Virus record (IMG/VR): IMGVR_UViG_3300046787_000675
Span: 32,001-96,000 of that record
Length of the DNA: 64,000 bases
DNA from: a virus
Direction: 5' to 3' (one strand)
Shown here: in pieces, positions 1 to 32,299 of the stretch
Layout of the letters: each line of letters starts with the position of its first letter
How positions within the stretch are numbered: position 1 is the stretch's first letter
Made by a program: the position numbers and the translations under genes
Notes under the pieces: model-generated
What the model saw: only the letters and a program-made list of their open reading frames with translations
What the model was told of the DNA's origin: nothing
The model's database searches: none

Positions 1-719
1 CCTCCCCAATTTCCTATTTGAAACTGCTCACTCAAGAACGGCCAAAGGGATTTAAGAGAAGGGACTTTACTAAAGGGCAACTTACCTATGGTGATCTTAT
101 CACCTAACAAAAAGCCGAACCCAGCAGACTTGTAAATGTCTGCGAAATTGTTCTCCCCATCACGAGAGAATACAATTTCTCCTTTCGGGGAGAGGCCAAT
201 TGCTGTTCCTTTGAACTTGTGGAGTTTGTCTCTCCGATAGAGAGTACCCTCGGTATATTCCTTACCGACTCTCTCCACTAGGGAGAGTAAAATCTCGGTC
301 GATGGAACGACCCCGCGTTCGGGGCGAGCCCATCCAAAGATGGAAAGACCCTCTACGTTATCGGCTGCTGACGCGCCGTTCGCGTCTATCTGACTAACTT
401 CGCGAACGAAGTTAGCAAATTGCGGGTCGTCCGCCGCAGCGGGGTTTAAAACCAGCCACGTACTCAATATAGAGTCCGCATCGATCGAGCTAACCCGCAT
501 TTCCTCAATGTCCGGGAGGAATTGTCTCAGCCCAAGCCTCAGGGCATTCAACACCTGCAAGCAGGTTGCCGACAGAGGGAATCGTTCCCCTTCGCCATGA
601 TGGTCGAAGGAGAAACTATTTGTCTCTGGTTTCGCGGCATAGCCTCGGTAGGCACCATCAATGTATATGGTGTTGTTTTCCATTTCATTTACGGGATCAG
701 TTAGTAGTTGGATATTCAT
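1..719 (-). CDS. DHH-superfamily phosphoesterase-like protein, partial (runs off left edge; not in ORF track)
   Basis: ATG at 719 behind AAGGAG. My translation: MNIQLLTDPVNEMENNTIYIDG...SFDHHGEGERFPLSATCLQV...SSIDADSILS...QIDANG...GNWG. It has DHH and DxD motifs plus a WG(G)-like end. Confidence 0.55.
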   Translation of the reverse strand, partial: MNIQLLTDPVNEMENNTIYIDGAYRGYAAKPETNSFSFDHHGEGERFPLSATCLQVLNALRLGLRQFLPDIEEMRVSSIDADSILSTWLVLNPAAADDPQFANFVREVSQIDANGASAADNVEGLSIFGWARPERGVVPSTEILLSLVERVGKEYTEGTLYRRDKLHKFKGTAIGLSPKGEIVFSRDGENNFADIYKSAGFGFLLGDKITIGKLPFSKVPSLKSLWPFLSEQFQIGNWG

Positions 720-798
720 AATTTTCTCCTTATAAGACGGGCTATGACTGCCCTTATTTTTTCAAAACAACCCGCCTTGCATACACAAGCCAGAGTTT
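720..798 (-). promoter_or_regulatory. Conserved structured 5' leader and RBS downstream of ribozyme copy 1
   Basis: Near-copy of 1697-1773. Hairpins CUUGU-GUAU-GCAAG and GGGC-N7-GCCC, followed by AAGGAGAAAAUUAUG. Confidence 0.7.
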
Positions 799-861
799 AT
801 TACCCCCTGTAGTACAGGGACGCACTAAGCTTAAAATCTATTTATAGTCGCTTAGTCGACT
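799..861 (-). ncRNA. Pistol self-cleaving ribozyme, copy 1
   Basis: AGUCG-ACUAAG-CGACU-AUAAAUAG-AUU-UUAAG-CUUAGU-GCG-UCCCUGU-ACU-ACAGGGG-G^U-AAU. Shows P1, 6-bp pseudoknot, AAA linker, AAG, GCG, U.G-closed P3, GU site and P2. Predicted cut between 803 and 802. Confidence 0.9.
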
Positions 862-1307
862 TCCTCCTCATCCTCATCCAGAGCAGGGGCATTCTCCCAC
901 CACTCGTAGATCAACGATCTTAAATCCGACAGTCTGTCGGACTGTTCTCGTTGGAGATGAAGACGAGGATCTTCCTCGTCTAGGATCGGGAGACCTACAC
1001 GACTTTTTAAATCGTCAGGTAATTCTTCAAATCCTAGGTAGTTGCAATAGCTTACAGTCAGGACATCCTTTACATCCTGCTCTGTTACTTCCCCAACTAC
1101 GGGGAAGGTTTTAAATATATCTTTCGGGATGTCGAGGAATACCCCCGAAAGAGTTAAGTTGTTACTTACAGCCACTTCTTGGGAGGAACATGGCGGTCTT
1201 GTAGTTATTACAGGAGCGACGAGATAGGTCTCGTCGTTATCCCGTACAGCGCAAAGGAGGGCTTCGCGCCATTTAACTACCTTCAATCGAGGAGTTCCCA
1301 TAACCAT
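852..1307 (-). CDS. Hypothetical protein with acidic C-tail; last codons overlap ribozyme P1
   Basis: ORF track; GAGG RBS near the start. Confidence 0.6.
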   Translation of the reverse strand: MVMGTPRLKVVKWREALLCAVRDNDETYLVAPVITTRPPCSSQEVAVSNNLTLSGVFLDIPKDIFKTFPVVGEVTEQDVKDVLTVSYCNYLGFEELPDDLKSRVGLPILDEEDPRLHLQREQSDRLSDLRSLIYEWWENAPALDEDEEEVD

Positions 1308-1696
1308 TCCTCGTTGAATTCCTCAAAATCCTCTCTGAAGAATCTATTCGGAGTGGGCCCACCCCCTATGATTAGCCCTGAGGCGAGCATAAATATGCTA
1401 CCAAGTCCTTTCCCTAGAGAGCGGGAGGAGCCTCCCTCCTTCCAGAATTTCTCTGGAATATAGAGGGCTTCTTCATCGCCCTCTATATTCTCTCCTGGTA
1501 GACATGTGTAATGCTCCAGCTCATTTTGAGCATCCTCCTCTTCCCCTACGGCAGTAGGGTCATAGGTATACCCCTTTTTACGGGGTGTTTTCAATTTTAA
1601 CCCCGCAGGGGTTATAATTATAGATCCACCCTCTGGGGTGGGCAGTACGGAACCGCCCGCGGCGTAAAACTTATAATTTAGGTTTCTTTTATTCAT
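1283..1696 (-). CDS. Hypothetical protein
   Basis: ORF with strong AAGGAG RBS in the conserved leader. Confidence 0.7.
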   Translation of the reverse strand: MNKRNLNYKFYAAGGSVLPTPEGGSIIITPAGLKLKTPRKKGYTYDPTAVGEEEDAQNELEHYTCLPGENIEGDEEALYIPEKFWKEGGSSRSLGKGLGSIFMLASGLIIGGGPTPNRFFREDFEEFNEEWLWELLD

Positions 1697-1773
1697 AATT
1701 TTTCTCCTTATAAGACGGGCTTATGAAACCCTTATTTTAAAACAACTCGCCTTACCTACGTAAGCCCAAGTTT
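1697..1773 (-). promoter_or_regulatory. Conserved structured 5' leader and RBS downstream of ribozyme copy 2
   Basis: Hairpins CUUAC-GUAG-GUAAG and GGGU-N7-GCCC, covarying with 720-798. Confidence 0.7.
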
Positions 1774-1836
1774 ATTACCCCCTACAGCGTAGGGACGCAC
1801 TAGGCTTAAAATCTCTTTATAGTCGCCTAGTCGACT
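1774..1836 (-). ncRNA. Pistol self-cleaving ribozyme, copy 2
   Basis: AGUCG-ACUAGG-CGACU-AUAAAGAG-AUU-UUAAG-CCUAGU-GCG-UCCCUAC-GCU-GUAGGGG-G^U-AAU. Compensatory changes versus copy 1. Predicted cut 1778/1777. Confidence 0.9.
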
Positions 1837-1871
1837 GCTACGTTTTACGCCCAGCTCGGCGCGGACGGTTT

Positions 1872-2150
1872 TTACATCAAGTCTTCCTTAGATGCGATTC
1901 CGTCTGCTATTTTAATAGCAGTGTGTCGGAACCATCCGAGAAGACTGTCCACGTCTTGGCTATTTTGCCAGTGGTATTCCTGGCAGGTTAGCCCTCTGGC
2001 GGGACAGCCCTTAATGTAGAACCTATACCCTTTGTACAGGATATAGATTCCATCCGCCTCTACTCTAAGATCGTAGTCCTTTTCAGGTAATACATTAGAG
2101 TAGAAGGCGATTTCTTGGATTAGATCCAAGGTATCTTTGTTATTTAACAT
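1872..2150 (-). CDS. Hypothetical protein
   Basis: ORF with AAGGAG RBS. Confidence 0.7.
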   Translation of the reverse strand: MLNNKDTLDLIQEIAFYSNVLPEKDYDLRVEADGIYILYKGYRFYIKGCPARGLTCQEYHWQNSQDVDSLLGWFRHTAIKIADGIASKEDLM

Positions 2151-2184
2151 GGATACTCCTTGTAGGCTGGTCAGGCCTGTTAAA

Positions 2185-2649
2185 TTATTTTTTTAAGAGC
2201 ATAACGCGACCTACGTTAAACACTTTGACATGGTAATTTAGAGCCCTCGTTTCAGCCTCATCGGCTTCTGCTAAGTACTCCGGTGTGACCCATACTCCTT
2301 TGTTCAAAACCCTTTCAAGTTTTTGCACATAAGGTGCGGAGTCATGTCCATGTCCACCGAAAAATATTACAGCCTCGGTGTGGCTGTTGGCTTGTTGCCA
2401 TGCCGCACATCCGCTGTGGCTACGCCGTTTAACTTGAACCGGGTAAACGATACCGGTGCTCTTGTTTGCAAGAGCTACGTCCACTCCCTGATGATCCAGG
2501 TCATGAGTGATGAACGCCTCCCAGCCTCTAATCTGGTCGATTACCCTTACGAGGATTTCCTCGTTTAGATAACCAACCTCTTGAGCACGGCTGGCGTTCA
2601 CTGGGATACGTGCTTTTTTATCCCAATCATACGACTTAAAAACTTTCAT
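2185..2649 (-). CDS. Possible PD-(D/E)xK-fold nuclease-like protein
   Basis: E...DHQGVDVAL...PVQVKRR resembles the D...(Q/E)xK core; AAGGA RBS. Confidence 0.45.
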   Translation of the reverse strand: MKVFKSYDWDKKARIPVNASRAQEVGYLNEEILVRVIDQIRGWEAFITHDLDHQGVDVALANKSTGIVYPVQVKRRSHSGCAAWQQANSHTEAVIFFGGHGHDSAPYVQKLERVLNKGVWVTPEYLAEADEAETRALNYHVKVFNVGRVMLLKK

Positions 2650-2666
2650 AAAAAAATCCTTATAAT

Positions 2667-2729
2667 ATTACCCCCTACAGCGTAGGGACGCACTAAGCTT
2701 AAAATCTATTTATAGTCGCCTAGTCGACT
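2667..2729 (-). ncRNA. Pistol self-cleaving ribozyme, copy 3
   Basis: AGUCG-ACUAGG-CGACU-AUAAAUAG-AUU-UUAAG-CUUAGU-GCG-UCCCUAC-GCU-GUAGGGG-G^U-AAU. The pseudoknot has a G.U wobble that pairs only on the minus strand. Predicted cut 2671/2670. Confidence 0.9.
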
Positions 2730-2737
2730 GTTAAGAA

Positions 2738-3070
2738 CTACCAGGGGTAGCGGTAGTTCTTTGTTCCGGACCATTTAAACCTAGGGTTCCTAGGCACCCC
2801 CCGTAGGTCCATATACGGGAGGTGAAAAGATATTTGATGCCCTTTCCAACATACGTATAGTATGTCAGAAAAGGCATCTCCACCAATTACTACCTTAGGT
2901 AGATCGGGGAGATTTTTATCTCTTTTTATTTTCCATTCTTTTATGAACAGATCAAGGTATTTCTCCTTGTGTTCATAAAAGAATGTAGAGTCTTCCTTGG
3001 CTCGTATATTGGCCAAGAAAGCTCTTTTTAGTAAATAATTCAGGAATTTATCCATCCATAGATACTCCAT
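2738..3070 (-). CDS. Hypothetical phage protein (QISFH motif); true start may be 3055
   Basis: ORF track; GGAG lies 9 nt before the internal Met (MDKFL). Confidence 0.6.
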   Translation of the reverse strand: MEYLWMDKFLNYLLKRAFLANIRAKEDSTFFYEHKEKYLDLFIKEWKIKRDKNLPDLPKVVIGGDAFSDILYVCWKGHQISFHLPYMDLRGVPRNPRFKWSGTKNYRYPW

Positions 3071-3500
3071 TAAGGTTGTTACATAGTAGAGATAGCATCC
3101 GCGCTATTTCTACCGACATGTACTCACCTTGTTAAGTACACAGCTAAGGTTTTTTATGGGTCATATAGAGGATACCTGTAAAACCCCTACTAGAAAGTCT
3201 TTCGCGCCTTCTTTCGCGCCCCCTTGGGGGAACTGTGGTACACATGAGCCTGTACCAAGCCCCGGGGAAACTAGTGATCCTTCACTAGAGACTGATGTCC
3301 CGGAATTTTTCATTTGTATCCCGCCCCGCTTTGCGGTCGGCGGATAATTACTGTTTCATAATTTCGCTCCTTATTAAAGACGGGCTTATGAAACCCTACT
3401 GAATTTATATACTTCTACTCACCCACTGTAGTAAATAGAAGGGGCTACAAGTTCAGTTACTACTTGTAGCCCTATTCAAAGATAACTATGCGCTATCTCA
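3070..3500 (-). ncRNA. Candidate structured noncoding RNA or long leader
   Basis: No convincing minus-strand CDS. At least 8 hairpins, e.g. 3236-3257, 3271-3288, 3320-3344, 3412-3441, 3442-3472, 3480-3498. Confidence 0.45.
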
Positions 3501-12900: not shown

Positions 12901-14493
12901 TTAATTGTTATTAACAATGCATGCTCGCATTTCTGCGAACAAGGGCTGATCTGCCAACGCACGTAGGAAAATCCCACGCGCTCCATTTATATCTCGGCAC
13001 ATACTCTGTCCGAGACTCTTGATGGTCTTACGACCACCTAGATTTTGGATAACTTCTCCTGTCCAACTAGCGGTTTTACTTGTGTATGCTTCGCATTGTC
13101 TTATTATTATTTTTCCTGCCTCGTTAGCTTTACTTAAAAGCTTTTGAGAGAACTTGTAGTGGGATAAGGTAAGCATTTGACGTACTGACTTTTTGCGTAG
13201 CTTACGAGCAGCTTTACAAACCATATTACTTACTTCGAAAGGAGGTAGGATTATAACATCAAAGTTATTAACAAGCATAGCTACAGCTTTGTTGTGTAGT
13301 TCGGCTATTAAGTCTTTGATTTTCCAACGCATCCTATCTGCAGCTTTCTTAAGCCTATATCGTTGCTTAGCTGTACATTTAGTTTGTCGACTTATCAAGT
13401 CGTCTAAATAAATACACAATCTTGTTATTCTGCTCATAGCGCCTGAACCTATTTTAAAAACACCTGCAGGAGAGTAGCCTGTTAAGAATGTTCGTACACC
13501 TGGATCAAGAGCTACAATCCTACCTTGGTTTTCGGCAGGTACTGTAGTTACTTGTTCCGGTATACAGACAAACCATCTACCTTGTTGGTAAATAAGTCTG
13601 CTGTCCATAGGGGAATTTGGAATAGCTTCAGAATAGCGCAATACGCCTGACAATCTTTGATAAATACCTTTATCGCTTATCGCGCTCTTAGGGATGTAAC
13701 AAGAGTGTACAGGCTCTTTCTTACTTTTAAATTTAGGTACTTGGGGTACCCCTGTCTGCTTAGTAGTCATACGGCATTTAACAAGGCAAGAGTGCGCTTC
13801 TTTTACAGCTATAGACTTTATTTGATATGGTATTTCTTTCGACCATACAGGAGCGTCTTTGAAAAGAATATTTCTAAGATCCATCCAAGACACTCTTTCT
13901 GCAGGGTTTTTGTTTAACCAATCTAAAGCTAAGTTGTAGAAGAAACGGAAAGAACCTAGCCATTTCTTAAAGGCTATTTTCGTCTCTTTCAACGGATAGA
14001 TTCGTATCTTTCTCGATTTTGTTAGCGTACTTCCCAAATCGTGCGAAGCTGCTGGAGAAGTATTGTGATAATTCATTAACGTTTGTTGTGAGTTCTTCTT
14101 TGGAGCTAAAGCGGTGGTCATTGAGAACCACGATTTCTCCGCCGTTCTTCCTAACCATGGACTCAATGAGGTCAAATCCAAGTCTAACAAGTCGGTCTTT
14201 ACTGGTAACCACAAGCGTGAGCTTATCTCCCTGCATAAGTCGTTCCAGTAAGGCTTGAAGTCCTTTTCTTTTGAAGTTAAGAGCACTTCCGGTGTCTTCG
14301 ATGACTTCAGCGTTTGGGTACAGCTGTCTAAGTTGCGCGGTTTGTCGGACGAGGTCGTCCTTTTGTTCCGGCGAGTGGACTCTGCAGTAAAGGACGATAG
14401 AACTGTCTGCTTGTCCTCGAATGTACGATTTGACATCGTACAATCGCTGACCTGCTTCATTTTTGACTGTTCTAATCTTTCCTTCATCTGCAT
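12901..14493 (-). CDS. tnpB: TnpB with rearranged RuvC (pro-Fanzor/Fanzor2-like); start uncertain
   Basis: ALDPGVRTF (RuvC-I); IILPPF (Pro at the canonical Glu site); CEAYTSKT (alternative Glu); RDINGARGI (RuvC-III). Confidence 0.88.
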   Translation of the reverse strand: MQMKERLEQSKMKQVSDCTMSNRTFEDKQTVLSSFTAESTRRNKRTTSSDKPRNLDSCTQTLKSSKTPEVLLTSKEKDFKPYWNDLCREISSRLWLPVKTDLLDLDLTSLSPWLGRTAEKSWFSMTTALAPKKNSQQTLMNYHNTSPAASHDLGSTLTKSRKIRIYPLKETKIAFKKWLGSFRFFYNLALDWLNKNPAERVSWMDLRNILFKDAPVWSKEIPYQIKSIAVKEAHSCLVKCRMTTKQTGVPQVPKFKSKKEPVHSCYIPKSAISDKGIYQRLSGVLRYSEAIPNSPMDSRLIYQQGRWFVCIPEQVTTVPAENQGRIVALDPGVRTFLTGYSPAGVFKIGSGAMSRITRLCIYLDDLISRQTKCTAKQRYRLKKAADRMRWKIKDLIAELHNKAVAMLVNNFDVIILPPFEVSNMVCKAARKLRKKSVRQMLTLSHYKFSQKLLSKANEAGKIIIRQCEAYTSKTASWTGEVIQNLGGRKTIKSLGQSMCRDINGARGIFLRALADQPLFAEMRACIVNNN

Positions 14494-31876: not shown

Positions 31877-32299
31877 TTACCTGAGGATCTGTTTCTTCCT
31901 GCAAATCCTCTTCCTTTGGTCCAGAATAACTGTAAAATACGTGTTCGTATTTATATTTTGCGATTGTTATCGCTATATTACGGAACATTCTTTGTGTGGT
32001 TCCCATAACTACAGCAACCAAGACCATCAATACTAATACTGCGTACATATTTTTTCCTTTTGTTTTTATGTTATTTAATAAACCATACAAGTAAATTTGT
32101 ATGGGTGGTAGAGGACAATTTGTGGTTGTCTGCTACAATACCTACTGCCGCTACAACATCGTGTTTGTGGAGCAGTTTTTTTACTTCGTCAATTAATGTC
32201 TGTGCCATTTAGCACCTCACTTTGTTATGTTTTTTTGTTAAGTTTGTCTCCCTTTAAAAAAGAAAGAAAGACAATGGAGAATCTCACATACTAATTATC

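Follow-up and report, generated by a model that had tools for sequence, protein, structure and literature searches.

Pistol ribozymes were described as a class by Harris et al. in 2015, with representatives from Lysinibacillus sphaericus and Alistipes putredinis; they cleave at ~10 per min under physiological Mg2+, and their association with phages is already known (PMC4604425). For hammerhead ribozymes, Perreault et al. reported in 2011 that clustered copies in prophages flank genes or short gene blocks and proposed that they cut transcripts into operon- or gene-length mRNAs; clustered phage hammerheads do cut 2-kb polycistronic constructs in vitro (PMC3088659). The early polycistronic mRNA of phage T7 is processed by host RNase III at five sites in a ~7000-nt precursor (PMC3867540), and the synthetic insulator RiboJ combines a hammerhead-type ribozyme with a 23-nt hairpin, leaving a 5' hairpin ahead of the ribosome-binding site (PMC6206723). 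In bacteria and phages, the role of self-cleaving ribozymes is not yet settled (PMC6765202, PMC6155905).

Here we analyze a 64,000-nt stretch of DNA (the window; positions 32,001 to 96,000 of IMG/VR record IMGVR_UViG_3300046787_000675) with three pistols along a run of small genes of a large, uncultured phage. The locus is a further, clear-cut case of a phage arrangement known since 2011, and not a new class or principle. It shares with the pistol class (RF02679) the P1 helix, the 6-bp pseudoknot that the P1 loop forms with the P2-P3 linker, P2, a P3 closed by a U.G pair, the GU cleavage junction, all highly conserved nucleotides and the phage association; there is no structural difference, P2 being here at the short end. 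As with the clustered hammerheads of Perreault et al., several same-sense self-cleaving ribozymes are found between unrelated small phage genes and the same role is proposed, whereas here only pistols occur, two junctions share a two-hairpin leader, and the block has its own bracketing tandem-hairpin modules. As in T7, a phage polycistronic transcript would be divided into separate messages by cuts at structured sites between genes; T7, however, needs a host protein enzyme and obtains 5'-phosphate and 3'-OH ends, whereas here the RNA itself would cut, giving 5'-OH and 2',3'-cyclic phosphate ends. At pistols 2 and 3 the elements are arranged as in RiboJ: the ribozyme and its cut come first, next a short single-stranded 5' end and a hairpin, and last the ribosome-binding site. 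Different genes would therefore receive the same 5' leader. In contrast to RiboJ, the arrangement is natural, its ribozyme is a pistol and not the sTRSV ribozyme, and it stands between operon genes rather than after a promoter. By this analogy, the pistol-leader units may be functionally equivalent to RiboJ.

Three pistol ribozymes in the phage record

Searching with cmscan and the Rfam Pistol model RF02679 (gathering score 34.5 bits), we found three matches, each spanning model positions 1-68 of 68:

2666-2729, minus strand: pistol ribozyme 1 (RF02679, full model, 67.5 bits)
1773-1836, minus strand: pistol ribozyme 2 (RF02679, 64.5 bits)
798-861, minus strand: pistol ribozyme 3 (RF02679, 69.3 bits, E 1.5e-10)

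The initial annotation had assigned three 63-nt intergenic repeats to the pistol class and proposed an Rfam model check; the full-model matches at 64.5-69.3 bits bear out this assignment. The position and minus strand of the repeats held, whereas the match is 64 nt long and pistol 3 is not strictly intergenic, its P1 loop containing the stop codon of the gene o151. The P1, P2, P3 and pseudoknot pairings listed there, together with the compensatory and G.U changes, are correct as read from the sequence. A scan of the rest of the genome, also suggested at that stage, returned no copy beyond these three in the 160.7-kb record; they are the only Rfam matches across the whole phage record, and the Rfam models detected no other ribozyme class there (e.g. 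hammerhead or twister). Beyond the 64-nt match, the repeat reaches 105 nt and more in copies 2 and 3; identity to copy 3 across these 105 nt is 84% for copy 2 and 69% for copy 1.

P1 is formed by AGUCG/CGACU. In all three copies, a 6-bp pseudoknot joins the P1 loop to the linker between P2 and P3 (ACUAAG/CUUAGU, ACUAGG/CCUAGU and ACUAGG/CUUAGU; 6 of 6 positions paired in every copy). P3 comprises 7 bp, UCCCUGU/ACAGGGG or UCCCUAC/GUAGGGG, with two compensatory pairs between copies. The junction 3' of P3 is exactly two nucleotides (GU), followed by the 3' strand of P2, which consists of AUU/AAU (AAUA against GAUU, i.e. three A-U pairs plus a G.A). The highly conserved pistol nucleotides are present, namely AUAAA.A following P1, UUA.GC ahead of the pseudoknot and GCGU behind it, and the G that precedes the scissile GU. 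Copy 2 has a G in place of a U in AUAAAUAG; this variant and the short P2 both occur in other confirmed phage pistols, the short P2 in several.

We aligned 12 phage pistols (alignment A2) and found that every column invariant among them is retained in the three copies. In this alignment, 98.5% of the P1 and pseudoknot cells are paired, against 24-38% in the slid alignments used as a control, with compensatory changes in 8 of 11 pairs. Between the three copies themselves, all six differences at paired positions preserve pairing: P3 has two compensatory pairs, and the pseudoknot has one as well as a G.U. Such pair-preserving substitutions indicate selection on the RNA fold and not merely on DNA identity. 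On covariance-model scores, conserved nucleotides and compensatory changes, the identification of the three minus-strand repeats as pistol ribozymes is, at the sequence level, fully supported.

Genes, leaders and boundaries of the block

The pistols lie on the coding strand, spaced two genes apart, and every flanking gene lies on the same, minus strand. The features around them, in the direction of the genes, are as follows:

3355-3476, minus strand: upstream boundary module, consisting of tandem hairpins T1 (3472-3442) and T2 (3441-3412), then a leader copy (3396-3357)
2738-3070, minus strand: o110, gene upstream of pistol 1
2185-2649, minus strand: o154, first gene of cassette 1
1872-2150, minus strand: o92, second gene of cassette 1, an ORFan with its own AAGGAG ribosome-binding site
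1744-1772, minus strand: hairpin H1 after pistol 2 (MFE fold), followed by UUGUUUU
1694-1731, minus strand: shared leader after pistol 2, with hairpin GGGUUUCAUAAGCCC, then GUCUUAUAAGGAG and the o137 AUG (repeat families D4-D6, alignment A1)
1283-1696, minus strand: o137, first gene of cassette 2, an ORFan
852-1307, minus strand: o151, second gene of cassette 2, overlapping o137 by 25 nt and ending within pistol 3
769-797, minus strand: hairpin H1 after pistol 3 (MFE fold, alignment A1)
717-753, minus strand: shared leader after pistol 3, with hairpin GGGCAGUCAUAGCCC, then the identical GUCUUAUAAGGAG and the o272 AUG
1-719, minus strand: o272, gene downstream of pistol 3, extending past the window edge (272 aa; L004 9901-10719) and with a DHH/DHHA1-like fold
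L004 9790-9660, outside the window: second boundary module, downstream of o272

The pistols are tightly packed between stop and start codons. Pistol 1 begins 8 nt past the o110 stop and ends 16 nt before the o154 start codon; pistol 2 begins 35 nt past the o92 stop, with 76 nt to the next start; for pistol 3 these distances are -10 and 78 nt, the o151 stop codon (854-852) lying in its P1 loop.

The cassette proteins showed no match in Pfam, PHROGs or PADLOC, and comparison with one another revealed no paralogues. No homologue of o154 was found among 5.8 billion proteins, and its possible nature as a PD-(D/E)XK nuclease is only a lead. A structure model of o272 gave nothing significant against the PDB (Foldseek); a wider structural search returned DHH-family matches that were consistent, if modest. 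Homologues of o272 share 30-53% identity with it, and relatives of the DNA polymerase only 24-26%. The record is assigned to a phage on the basis of its replication genes and an RNA polymerase gene.

Two of the three pistols, 2 and 3, are followed by the same two-hairpin leader. In both cases H1 starts 5 nt from the predicted new 5' end, and its two copies differ by one compensatory pair (A-U after pistol 2, G-C after pistol 3) and one C-G/U.G change. H1 with the following UUGUUUU could be a weak terminator instead of a stabiliser. As a general rule, a 5' hairpin following a pistol is unsupported: among 18 other pistols having long spacers, z was below -1 in just 7.

The upstream boundary module contains the fourth leader copy (3396-3357), which opens a 3-codon ORF. 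Modules combining tandem hairpins with the leader covary and number exactly two in 160 kb, one on each side of the block; the leader and hairpin elements of the block are absent elsewhere in the 160 kb. The GC content of the genome also peaks in this 4-kb block, at 0.45 (genome mean 0.387, SD 0.019). If the block is read as an expression island (see below), every gene bearing the shared leader follows an element that would generate an RNA end, namely a pistol or a tandem-hairpin module.

A sigma-70 scan identified no consensus promoter on the minus strand within the block, which is weak evidence either way given that a multisubunit RNA polymerase is encoded by the phage itself; the scan yielded no more sites than shuffled sequence and is thus uninformative. 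A terminator scan gave 18 sites against 7.5 expected. Terminator-like hairpins inside the block are few, all within coding sequence and with poor U-tracts, and we judged them to be chance matches.

Relatives of the locus and pistols in other viral contigs

No match to the locus was obtained by blastn among GenBank phages, or in IMG/VR with the exact pistol subtype pattern or with back-translated o272, o154 and o151. We examined one related contig, L006, which encodes an o272 homologue of 51% identity, and found no Rfam match and hence no pistol; on this one contig, the association of pistols with these particular genes is therefore not conserved.

We also surveyed 113 pistols located in other viral contigs. 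Nearly all (98 of 113) lie on the gene-rich strand, and a single one lies inside an ORF of the same strand. The pistol starts no more than 20 nt after a stop codon in 43 of 105 cases and overlaps a stop codon in 12 of 105. Stop-pistol-start packing is the rule among phage pistols in this small survey, which supports mRNA processing as a general role. The layout of the present locus was seen again in this survey, and same-strand arrays of 2-4 pistols were found in contigs L017, L020, L061, L063, L079, L094, L108, L109 and L124; the last of these also carries pistols of the same subtype as ours, in a genome with no detectable protein similarity to the present one.

Predicted processing and competing readings

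From the known G^U junction of the class, the cuts are predicted at G2671/U2670 (pistol 1), G1778/U1777 (pistol 2) and G803/U802 (pistol 3), with released RNAs of 893 nt and 975 nt. Recalculation confirms these lengths, already given in the initial annotation, and two ORFs lie on each fragment. We consider it probable that all three are functional self-cleaving pistols, transcribed in the sense direction within one ~3.6-kb transcript of small accessory genes and cutting it into separate messages. Self-processing of one polycistronic mRNA would best account for the locus; co-transcription, cleavage in vivo and an effect on expression are what this reading predicts, and the first two fit with the sense orientation, the tight stop-pistol-start packing and the bracketing tandem-hairpin modules.

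Each pistol would fold during its own synthesis and cut itself at the G^U between P3 and P2. The ribozyme body, ending in a 2',3'-cyclic phosphate, would remain as a structured cap at the 3' end of the upstream message, and the downstream message would begin with a 5'-OH. Behind pistol 1, this downstream message would have a short leader of 21 nt; behind pistols 2 and 3, it would carry a standard leader made of the 5'-proximal hairpin, the second hairpin and an identical ribosome-binding site. The outcome would be the two-gene mRNAs of 893 and 975 nt plus two flanking messages, whose stability and translation may become independent of neighbouring sequence, a task equivalent to that of host RNase III on T7 early RNA and of the RiboJ part in engineered circuits. 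The locus offers a compact and unambiguous test bed: only one ribozyme class is involved, its three copies are nearly identical, the product sizes are defined, the downstream leaders are of two kinds, and one of the ribozymes contains a stop codon. A 3-kb synthetic construct could test the effect of cleavage on the stability and translation of the flanking genes, as well as the protection of the 5'-OH end by the hairpin leader.

The pistols may also be active and yet serve mainly for graded expression control rather than simple maturation, a reading that we regard as unlikely. Cleavage would then mark one product for faster decay (e.g. by an RNase J-type exonuclease acting on 5'-OH RNA that lacks a protective 5' hairpin), which would set differing protein levels along the operon or make cleavage depend on translation of the upstream gene. 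The junctions are indeed unequal, the leader after pistol 1 being unstructured and those after pistols 2 and 3 presenting a hairpin close to the new end. Moreover, a ribosome terminating at the o151 stop would unfold P1 of pistol 3, the survey counts above show the same proximity to or overlap with stop codons in other phages, and regulated cleavage has been raised as possible for phage hammerheads (PMC3088659). Nevertheless, these 64-nt pistols are minimal and show no evident ligand-binding or switch element, and graded control largely overlaps with the preferred reading, differing in emphasis alone.

On a broader and rather speculative reading, to which we give little weight, the 4-kb GC-rich block would be a self-contained, horizontally mobile expression island in which pistol, 5' hairpin and leader form a natural modular insulator cassette, the counterpart of RiboJ, letting unrelated accessory or anti-defence gene pairs swap at a fixed expression level. 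It is more doubtful still that the pistol plus leader chiefly serves as a portable junction within a horizontally acquired island of shuffling cassettes, RNA cleavage being secondary or selfish and the repeated units of 64-140 nt acting as recombination points or travelling with incoming genes. The genes between the pistols are mutually unrelated and have neither families nor near relatives, the block stands out in GC content and in its unique leader and hairpin elements, a distant relative carries an o272 homologue without cassettes or pistols, and L124 bears same-subtype pistols in a dissimilar genome; all this would suit such an origin. However, we found no recombinase, target-site duplication or non-RNA cassette boundary, and the pair-preserving substitutions point to selection on the RNA fold.

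It is very improbable that a host RtcB-type ligase joins the 893-nt and 975-nt RNAs into circular or spliced RNAs. The ends made by pistols, a 5'-OH and a 2',3'-cyclic phosphate, do match RtcB substrates. Perreault et al. considered splicing or circles for clustered hammerheads as well, but sought such products and detected none (PMC3088659); furthermore, the phage record encodes neither RtcB nor an RNA ligase, and we noticed no complementarity bridging the fragment ends. Equally hard to credit is that the pistols are inactive relics or lack sense transcription: P2 is very short and their activity is here a prediction, but the scores reach double the gathering threshold, none of the invariant nucleotides is altered, every paired change preserves pairing while the adjoining downstream leader has diverged more, and the neighbouring genes are all on the same strand.

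Three pistol ribozymes in the window

Searched against Rfam 15 at gathering thresholds, the whole window (bases 32001-96000 of the 160,705-bp IMG/VR virus record) matched Pistol (RF02679) three times and no other family; each match lies on the minus strand and spans model positions 1-68 of 68.

Pistol ribozymes (window positions)
2729-2666, minus strand: pistol 1, RF02679, 67.5 bits
1836-1773, minus strand: pistol 2, RF02679, 64.5 bits
861-798, minus strand: pistol 3, RF02679, 69.3 bits, E 1.5e-10

The initial annotation had described three repeats of the pistol class, and both points hold: the minus strand of window 600-3000, read directly, carries the repeats where they had been placed, and the full-model scores stand against a gathering score of 34.5. 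The scan for further copies elsewhere in the genome that it had suggested gave none, as a pistol search over the entire record returned these three only. With the E cutoff relaxed to 1, Rfam matched nothing further in 16 kb surrounding the pistols, a gathering-threshold scan of the remaining 87 kb of the record matched no Rfam family, and ARAGORN detected no tRNA in the window.

In each copy P1 is AGUCG/CGACU, and the 6-nt loop pairs with the linker before the GCG (ACUAAG/CUUAGU, ACUAGG/CCUAGU, and ACUAGG/CUUAGU), with the conserved GCGU directly after this pseudoknot. P1 is followed by AUAAAUAG, which in copy 2 reads AUAAAGAG, and by UUUUAAG. The 7 bp of P3 include a closing U.G pair; copies 1 and 2 have UCCCUAC/GUAGGGG, and copy 3 has UCCCUGU/ACAGGGG. 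This stem is followed by a two-nucleotide GU junction and by AAUA paired with GAUU (three A-U pairs and a G.A). The pistol class cleaves at the GU junction (PMC4604425), and the predicted cuts are therefore 2671/2670, 1778/1777, and 803/802, giving computed internal products of 893 and 975 nt, identical to those proposed initially.

To the three local copies we aligned nine pistols, all Rfam-confirmed, of other viral contigs. All invariant columns of this 12-pistol alignment are retained locally, and the short P2 with its G.A and the G in AUAAAGAG are present in other confirmed pistols too. Across P1 and the pseudoknot, 98.5% of cells are paired and 8 of the 11 pairs show two-sided changes; sliding the partner by 1-3 columns as a control lowered pairing to 24-38%. 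Among the local copies, all six substitutions at paired positions preserve pairing; of the other two differences, one is in the loop of P3 and one at a linker position that is variable. Over the 105-nt repeat, copies 2 and 1 are 84% and 69% identical to copy 3, respectively, and the adjoining downstream leader has diverged more than the pistols. Selection has therefore maintained the pistol fold since the copies arose.

The gene block and its leader modules

Every gene in the region lies on the minus strand. ORFs are named by their length in amino acids, and L004 denotes a stretch of the same record reaching past the window edge.

Features of the gene block, with the phage polymerase domain (window positions unless stated)
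genome 31350-35480 (window about -650 to 3480): pistol block, GC maximum
3476-3355: T1/T2 and leader module
3396-3357, minus strand: leader copy, opening a 3-codon ORF
3070-2738, minus strand: o110, upstream of pistol 1
2649-2185, minus strand: o154, between pistols 1 and 2
2150-1872, minus strand: o92, between pistols 1 and 2
1772-1744, minus strand: hairpin H1 (29 nt) of pistol 2, beginning five nt past the predicted cut
after pistol 2, minus strand: leader copy
1696-1283, minus strand: o137, between pistols 2 and 3
1307-852, minus strand: o151, between pistols 2 and 3, overlapping o137 by 25 nt
797-769, minus strand: hairpin H1 of pistol 3, likewise five nt past the cut
after pistol 3, minus strand: leader copy
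719 to past the window edge, minus strand: o272, after pistol 3 (272 aa in L004, 9901-10719)
L004 9790-9660 (outside the window): T1/T2 and leader module, after o272
L004 about 9700-9660: leader copy, upstream of the gene following o272
genome 997-1356 (outside the window), minus strand: multisubunit RNA polymerase domain (PF00623, 47.9 bits) within a 2102-aa open frame

The distances from upstream stop codon to pistol are 8, 35, and -10 nt for pistols 1, 2, and 3, and those from pistol to next start codon 16, 76, and 78 nt. The UAA stop codon of o151 lies within the P1 loop of pistol 3, upstream of the predicted cut, so the ORF is left intact.

The repeat of copies 2 and 3 continues beyond the ribozyme into H1, which differs between them by one compensatory pair and one one-sided change and has UUGUUUU directly on its 3' side; a second hairpin follows, then an identical start region, GUCUUAUAAGGAG-N-AUUAUGAA. 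All four leader copies in the 160 kb are inside the block. Those at 3396-3357 and after o272 are preceded by two abutting hairpins, T1 and T2, whose differences between the two modules are compensatory; the upstream module has a folding energy of -31.7 kcal/mol. The T1/T2 module occurs exactly twice in the 160-kb genome, bracketing the pistol-containing genes, and could combine a terminator with a promoter for the phage polymerase, or serve in RNA processing or as a switch. Within it, CUUCUAUUU can pair either upstream or downstream.

The minus strand within the bracket has no consensus promoter, a scan that is weak evidence since the phage encodes its own polymerase, and its few terminator-like hairpins, all in coding sequence, were judged to be chance matches. 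The PF00623 domain makes it probable that some of the genome is transcribed by the phage's enzyme from non-sigma-70 promoters.

Between the 3-codon ORF and o110, the minus strand of window 3065-3350 forms a 286-nt stretch folding at -93.8 kcal/mol (z -3.06, 0 of 200 shuffles as good), with no Rfam match; it includes the direct repeat GGCGCGAAAGA and an ORF of 50 aa that is of low complexity and doubtful, and may be an undescribed structured RNA heading the operon.

Pistols in other contigs and transcript processing

A loose core pattern matched more than 117 stretches in IMG/VR, and Rfam confirmed pistols in 7 of 11 scanned loci, two contigs (L017 and L020) each carrying one same-strand pair about 0.9-1.1 kb apart. 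When the core was combined with a minimum of 4 of 5 pairs in P1 and of 5 of 6 in the pseudoknot, the resulting descriptor picked up the three local pistols along with 113 more. These others mostly lie on the strand with greater ORF coverage (98/113), and only one is within a same-strand ORF; 43 of 105 begin no more than 20 nt past a same-strand stop codon, 12 of 105 overlap one, and a start codon follows within 30 nt in 41 of 102. Same-strand arrays occur at eight loci. In one of these, on contig L109 (306-4313), four same-strand pistols in 4 kb each begin at or 1-2 nt past a stop codon, and on L124, a 1.6-kb JGI metagenome contig, two pistols of the subtype seen here flank two small genes. 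The four contigs compared (L124, L109, L017, and L020) have no detectable proteins in common with this phage.

The second L124 pistol (1266-1330) carries UAAAAUAG in place of the class AUAAAUAG, the two conserved positions being swapped; its P1, AGCCG/CGGCU, shows a compensatory change, and the copy is possibly weakened or a variant. That a hairpin directly follows the pistol was discarded as a general rule, with z < -1 in only 7 of 18 long-spacer pistols. On a further contig, L014, a type-P5 twister (1059-1113) lies near a pistol-like core match below the Rfam threshold.

In our best reading, for which we infer co-transcription, in vivo cleavage, and any effect on expression, the block would be transcribed as one RNA and every pistol would cut itself shortly after synthesis; the published rate for pistols is about 10 per min in physiological Mg2+ (PMC4604425). 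The upstream product would end in the compact ribozyme, its 3' terminus bearing a cyclic phosphate, and the downstream product would start with a 5'-OH, followed after pistols 2 and 3 by a near-terminal hairpin and a standard ribosome-binding region. The parts of RiboJ, a synthetic insulator, come in this same order, and the 5' hairpin that remains there is believed to increase mRNA stability (PMC6206723). We propose the block as an RNA-only functional counterpart of the T7 early precursor cut by RNase III (PMC3867540).

Alternatively, the pistols might exert graded control of decay, or their cleavage might be coupled to translation. They might also be junctions of an acquired, shuffling cassette island; no 4-kb window of the genome is richer in GC than the bracketed block (0.45; 4-kb windows average 0.387, SD 0.019), a composition that suggests a separate origin. 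Ligation or circularisation of the excised pieces is disfavoured, as the record encodes no RtcB or RNA ligase and Perreault et al. sought spliced or circular products of clustered hammerheads and found none (PMC3088659). Lastly, a view of the pistols as dead relics has to be set against their pair-preserving substitutions.

That long phage transcripts are cut in this way, into mRNAs the length of an operon or a gene, was itself proposed by Perreault et al. in 2011, who found single genes or short gene blocks in prophages often flanked by multiple hammerheads and observed in vitro cleavage of about 2-kb polycistronic constructs (PMC3088659); reviews take this up again, emphasising that the biological role has yet to be solved. 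The pistol class is established and known to be associated with phages (PMC4604425), and because punctuated gene blocks are also published, the block represents a known class in a known arrangement. Local details worth recording, none of which alters this category, are a shared leader resembling RiboJ, a stop codon lying in the P1 loop, the hairpin modules on either side of the block, and its island of raised GC.

Gene products and the phage genome

The six block proteins matched no family in Pfam, PHROG, or PADLOC and are not related to one another. For o154 no homologue was found, and the sole lead is to PD-(D/E)XK nucleases. The o272 family has seven members with invariant D21-G22, SFDHH 37-41, DAD 80-82, and D112. 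Its AlphaFold model (mean pLDDT 85) had no significant Foldseek match in the PDB; a wider structural search placed DHH/DHHA1 enzymes on top over the full length, with pAp phosphatase, RecJ/Cdc45, PggH, and NrnA as best matches, at Z of only 5-6, a likeness that is a lead rather than an assignment. We regard o272 as a candidate nucleotide or oligonucleotide phosphodiesterase, possibly with an anti-defence role. An mCpol-domain gene adjoins one o272 homologue.

The phage also encodes a family-A DNA polymerase, DnaB-type and other helicases, and SbcC; no near relatives were found among GenBank phages or in IMG/VR. A 166-bp direct terminal repeat (genome 1-166 and 160540-160705, 99.4% identity) joins the ends of the record, which is labelled linear without end repeats; possibly, this is a complete genome that was assembled as a circle or is terminally redundant. 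One further gene encodes a transposase.

Transposase gene (window positions)
12901-14493, minus strand: transposase, 530 aa, PHROG 506

Pleurocapsales-type cyanobacteria and Candidatus Uabimicrobium carry its closest genomic relatives (43-50% identity), a weak hint as to host or habitat.
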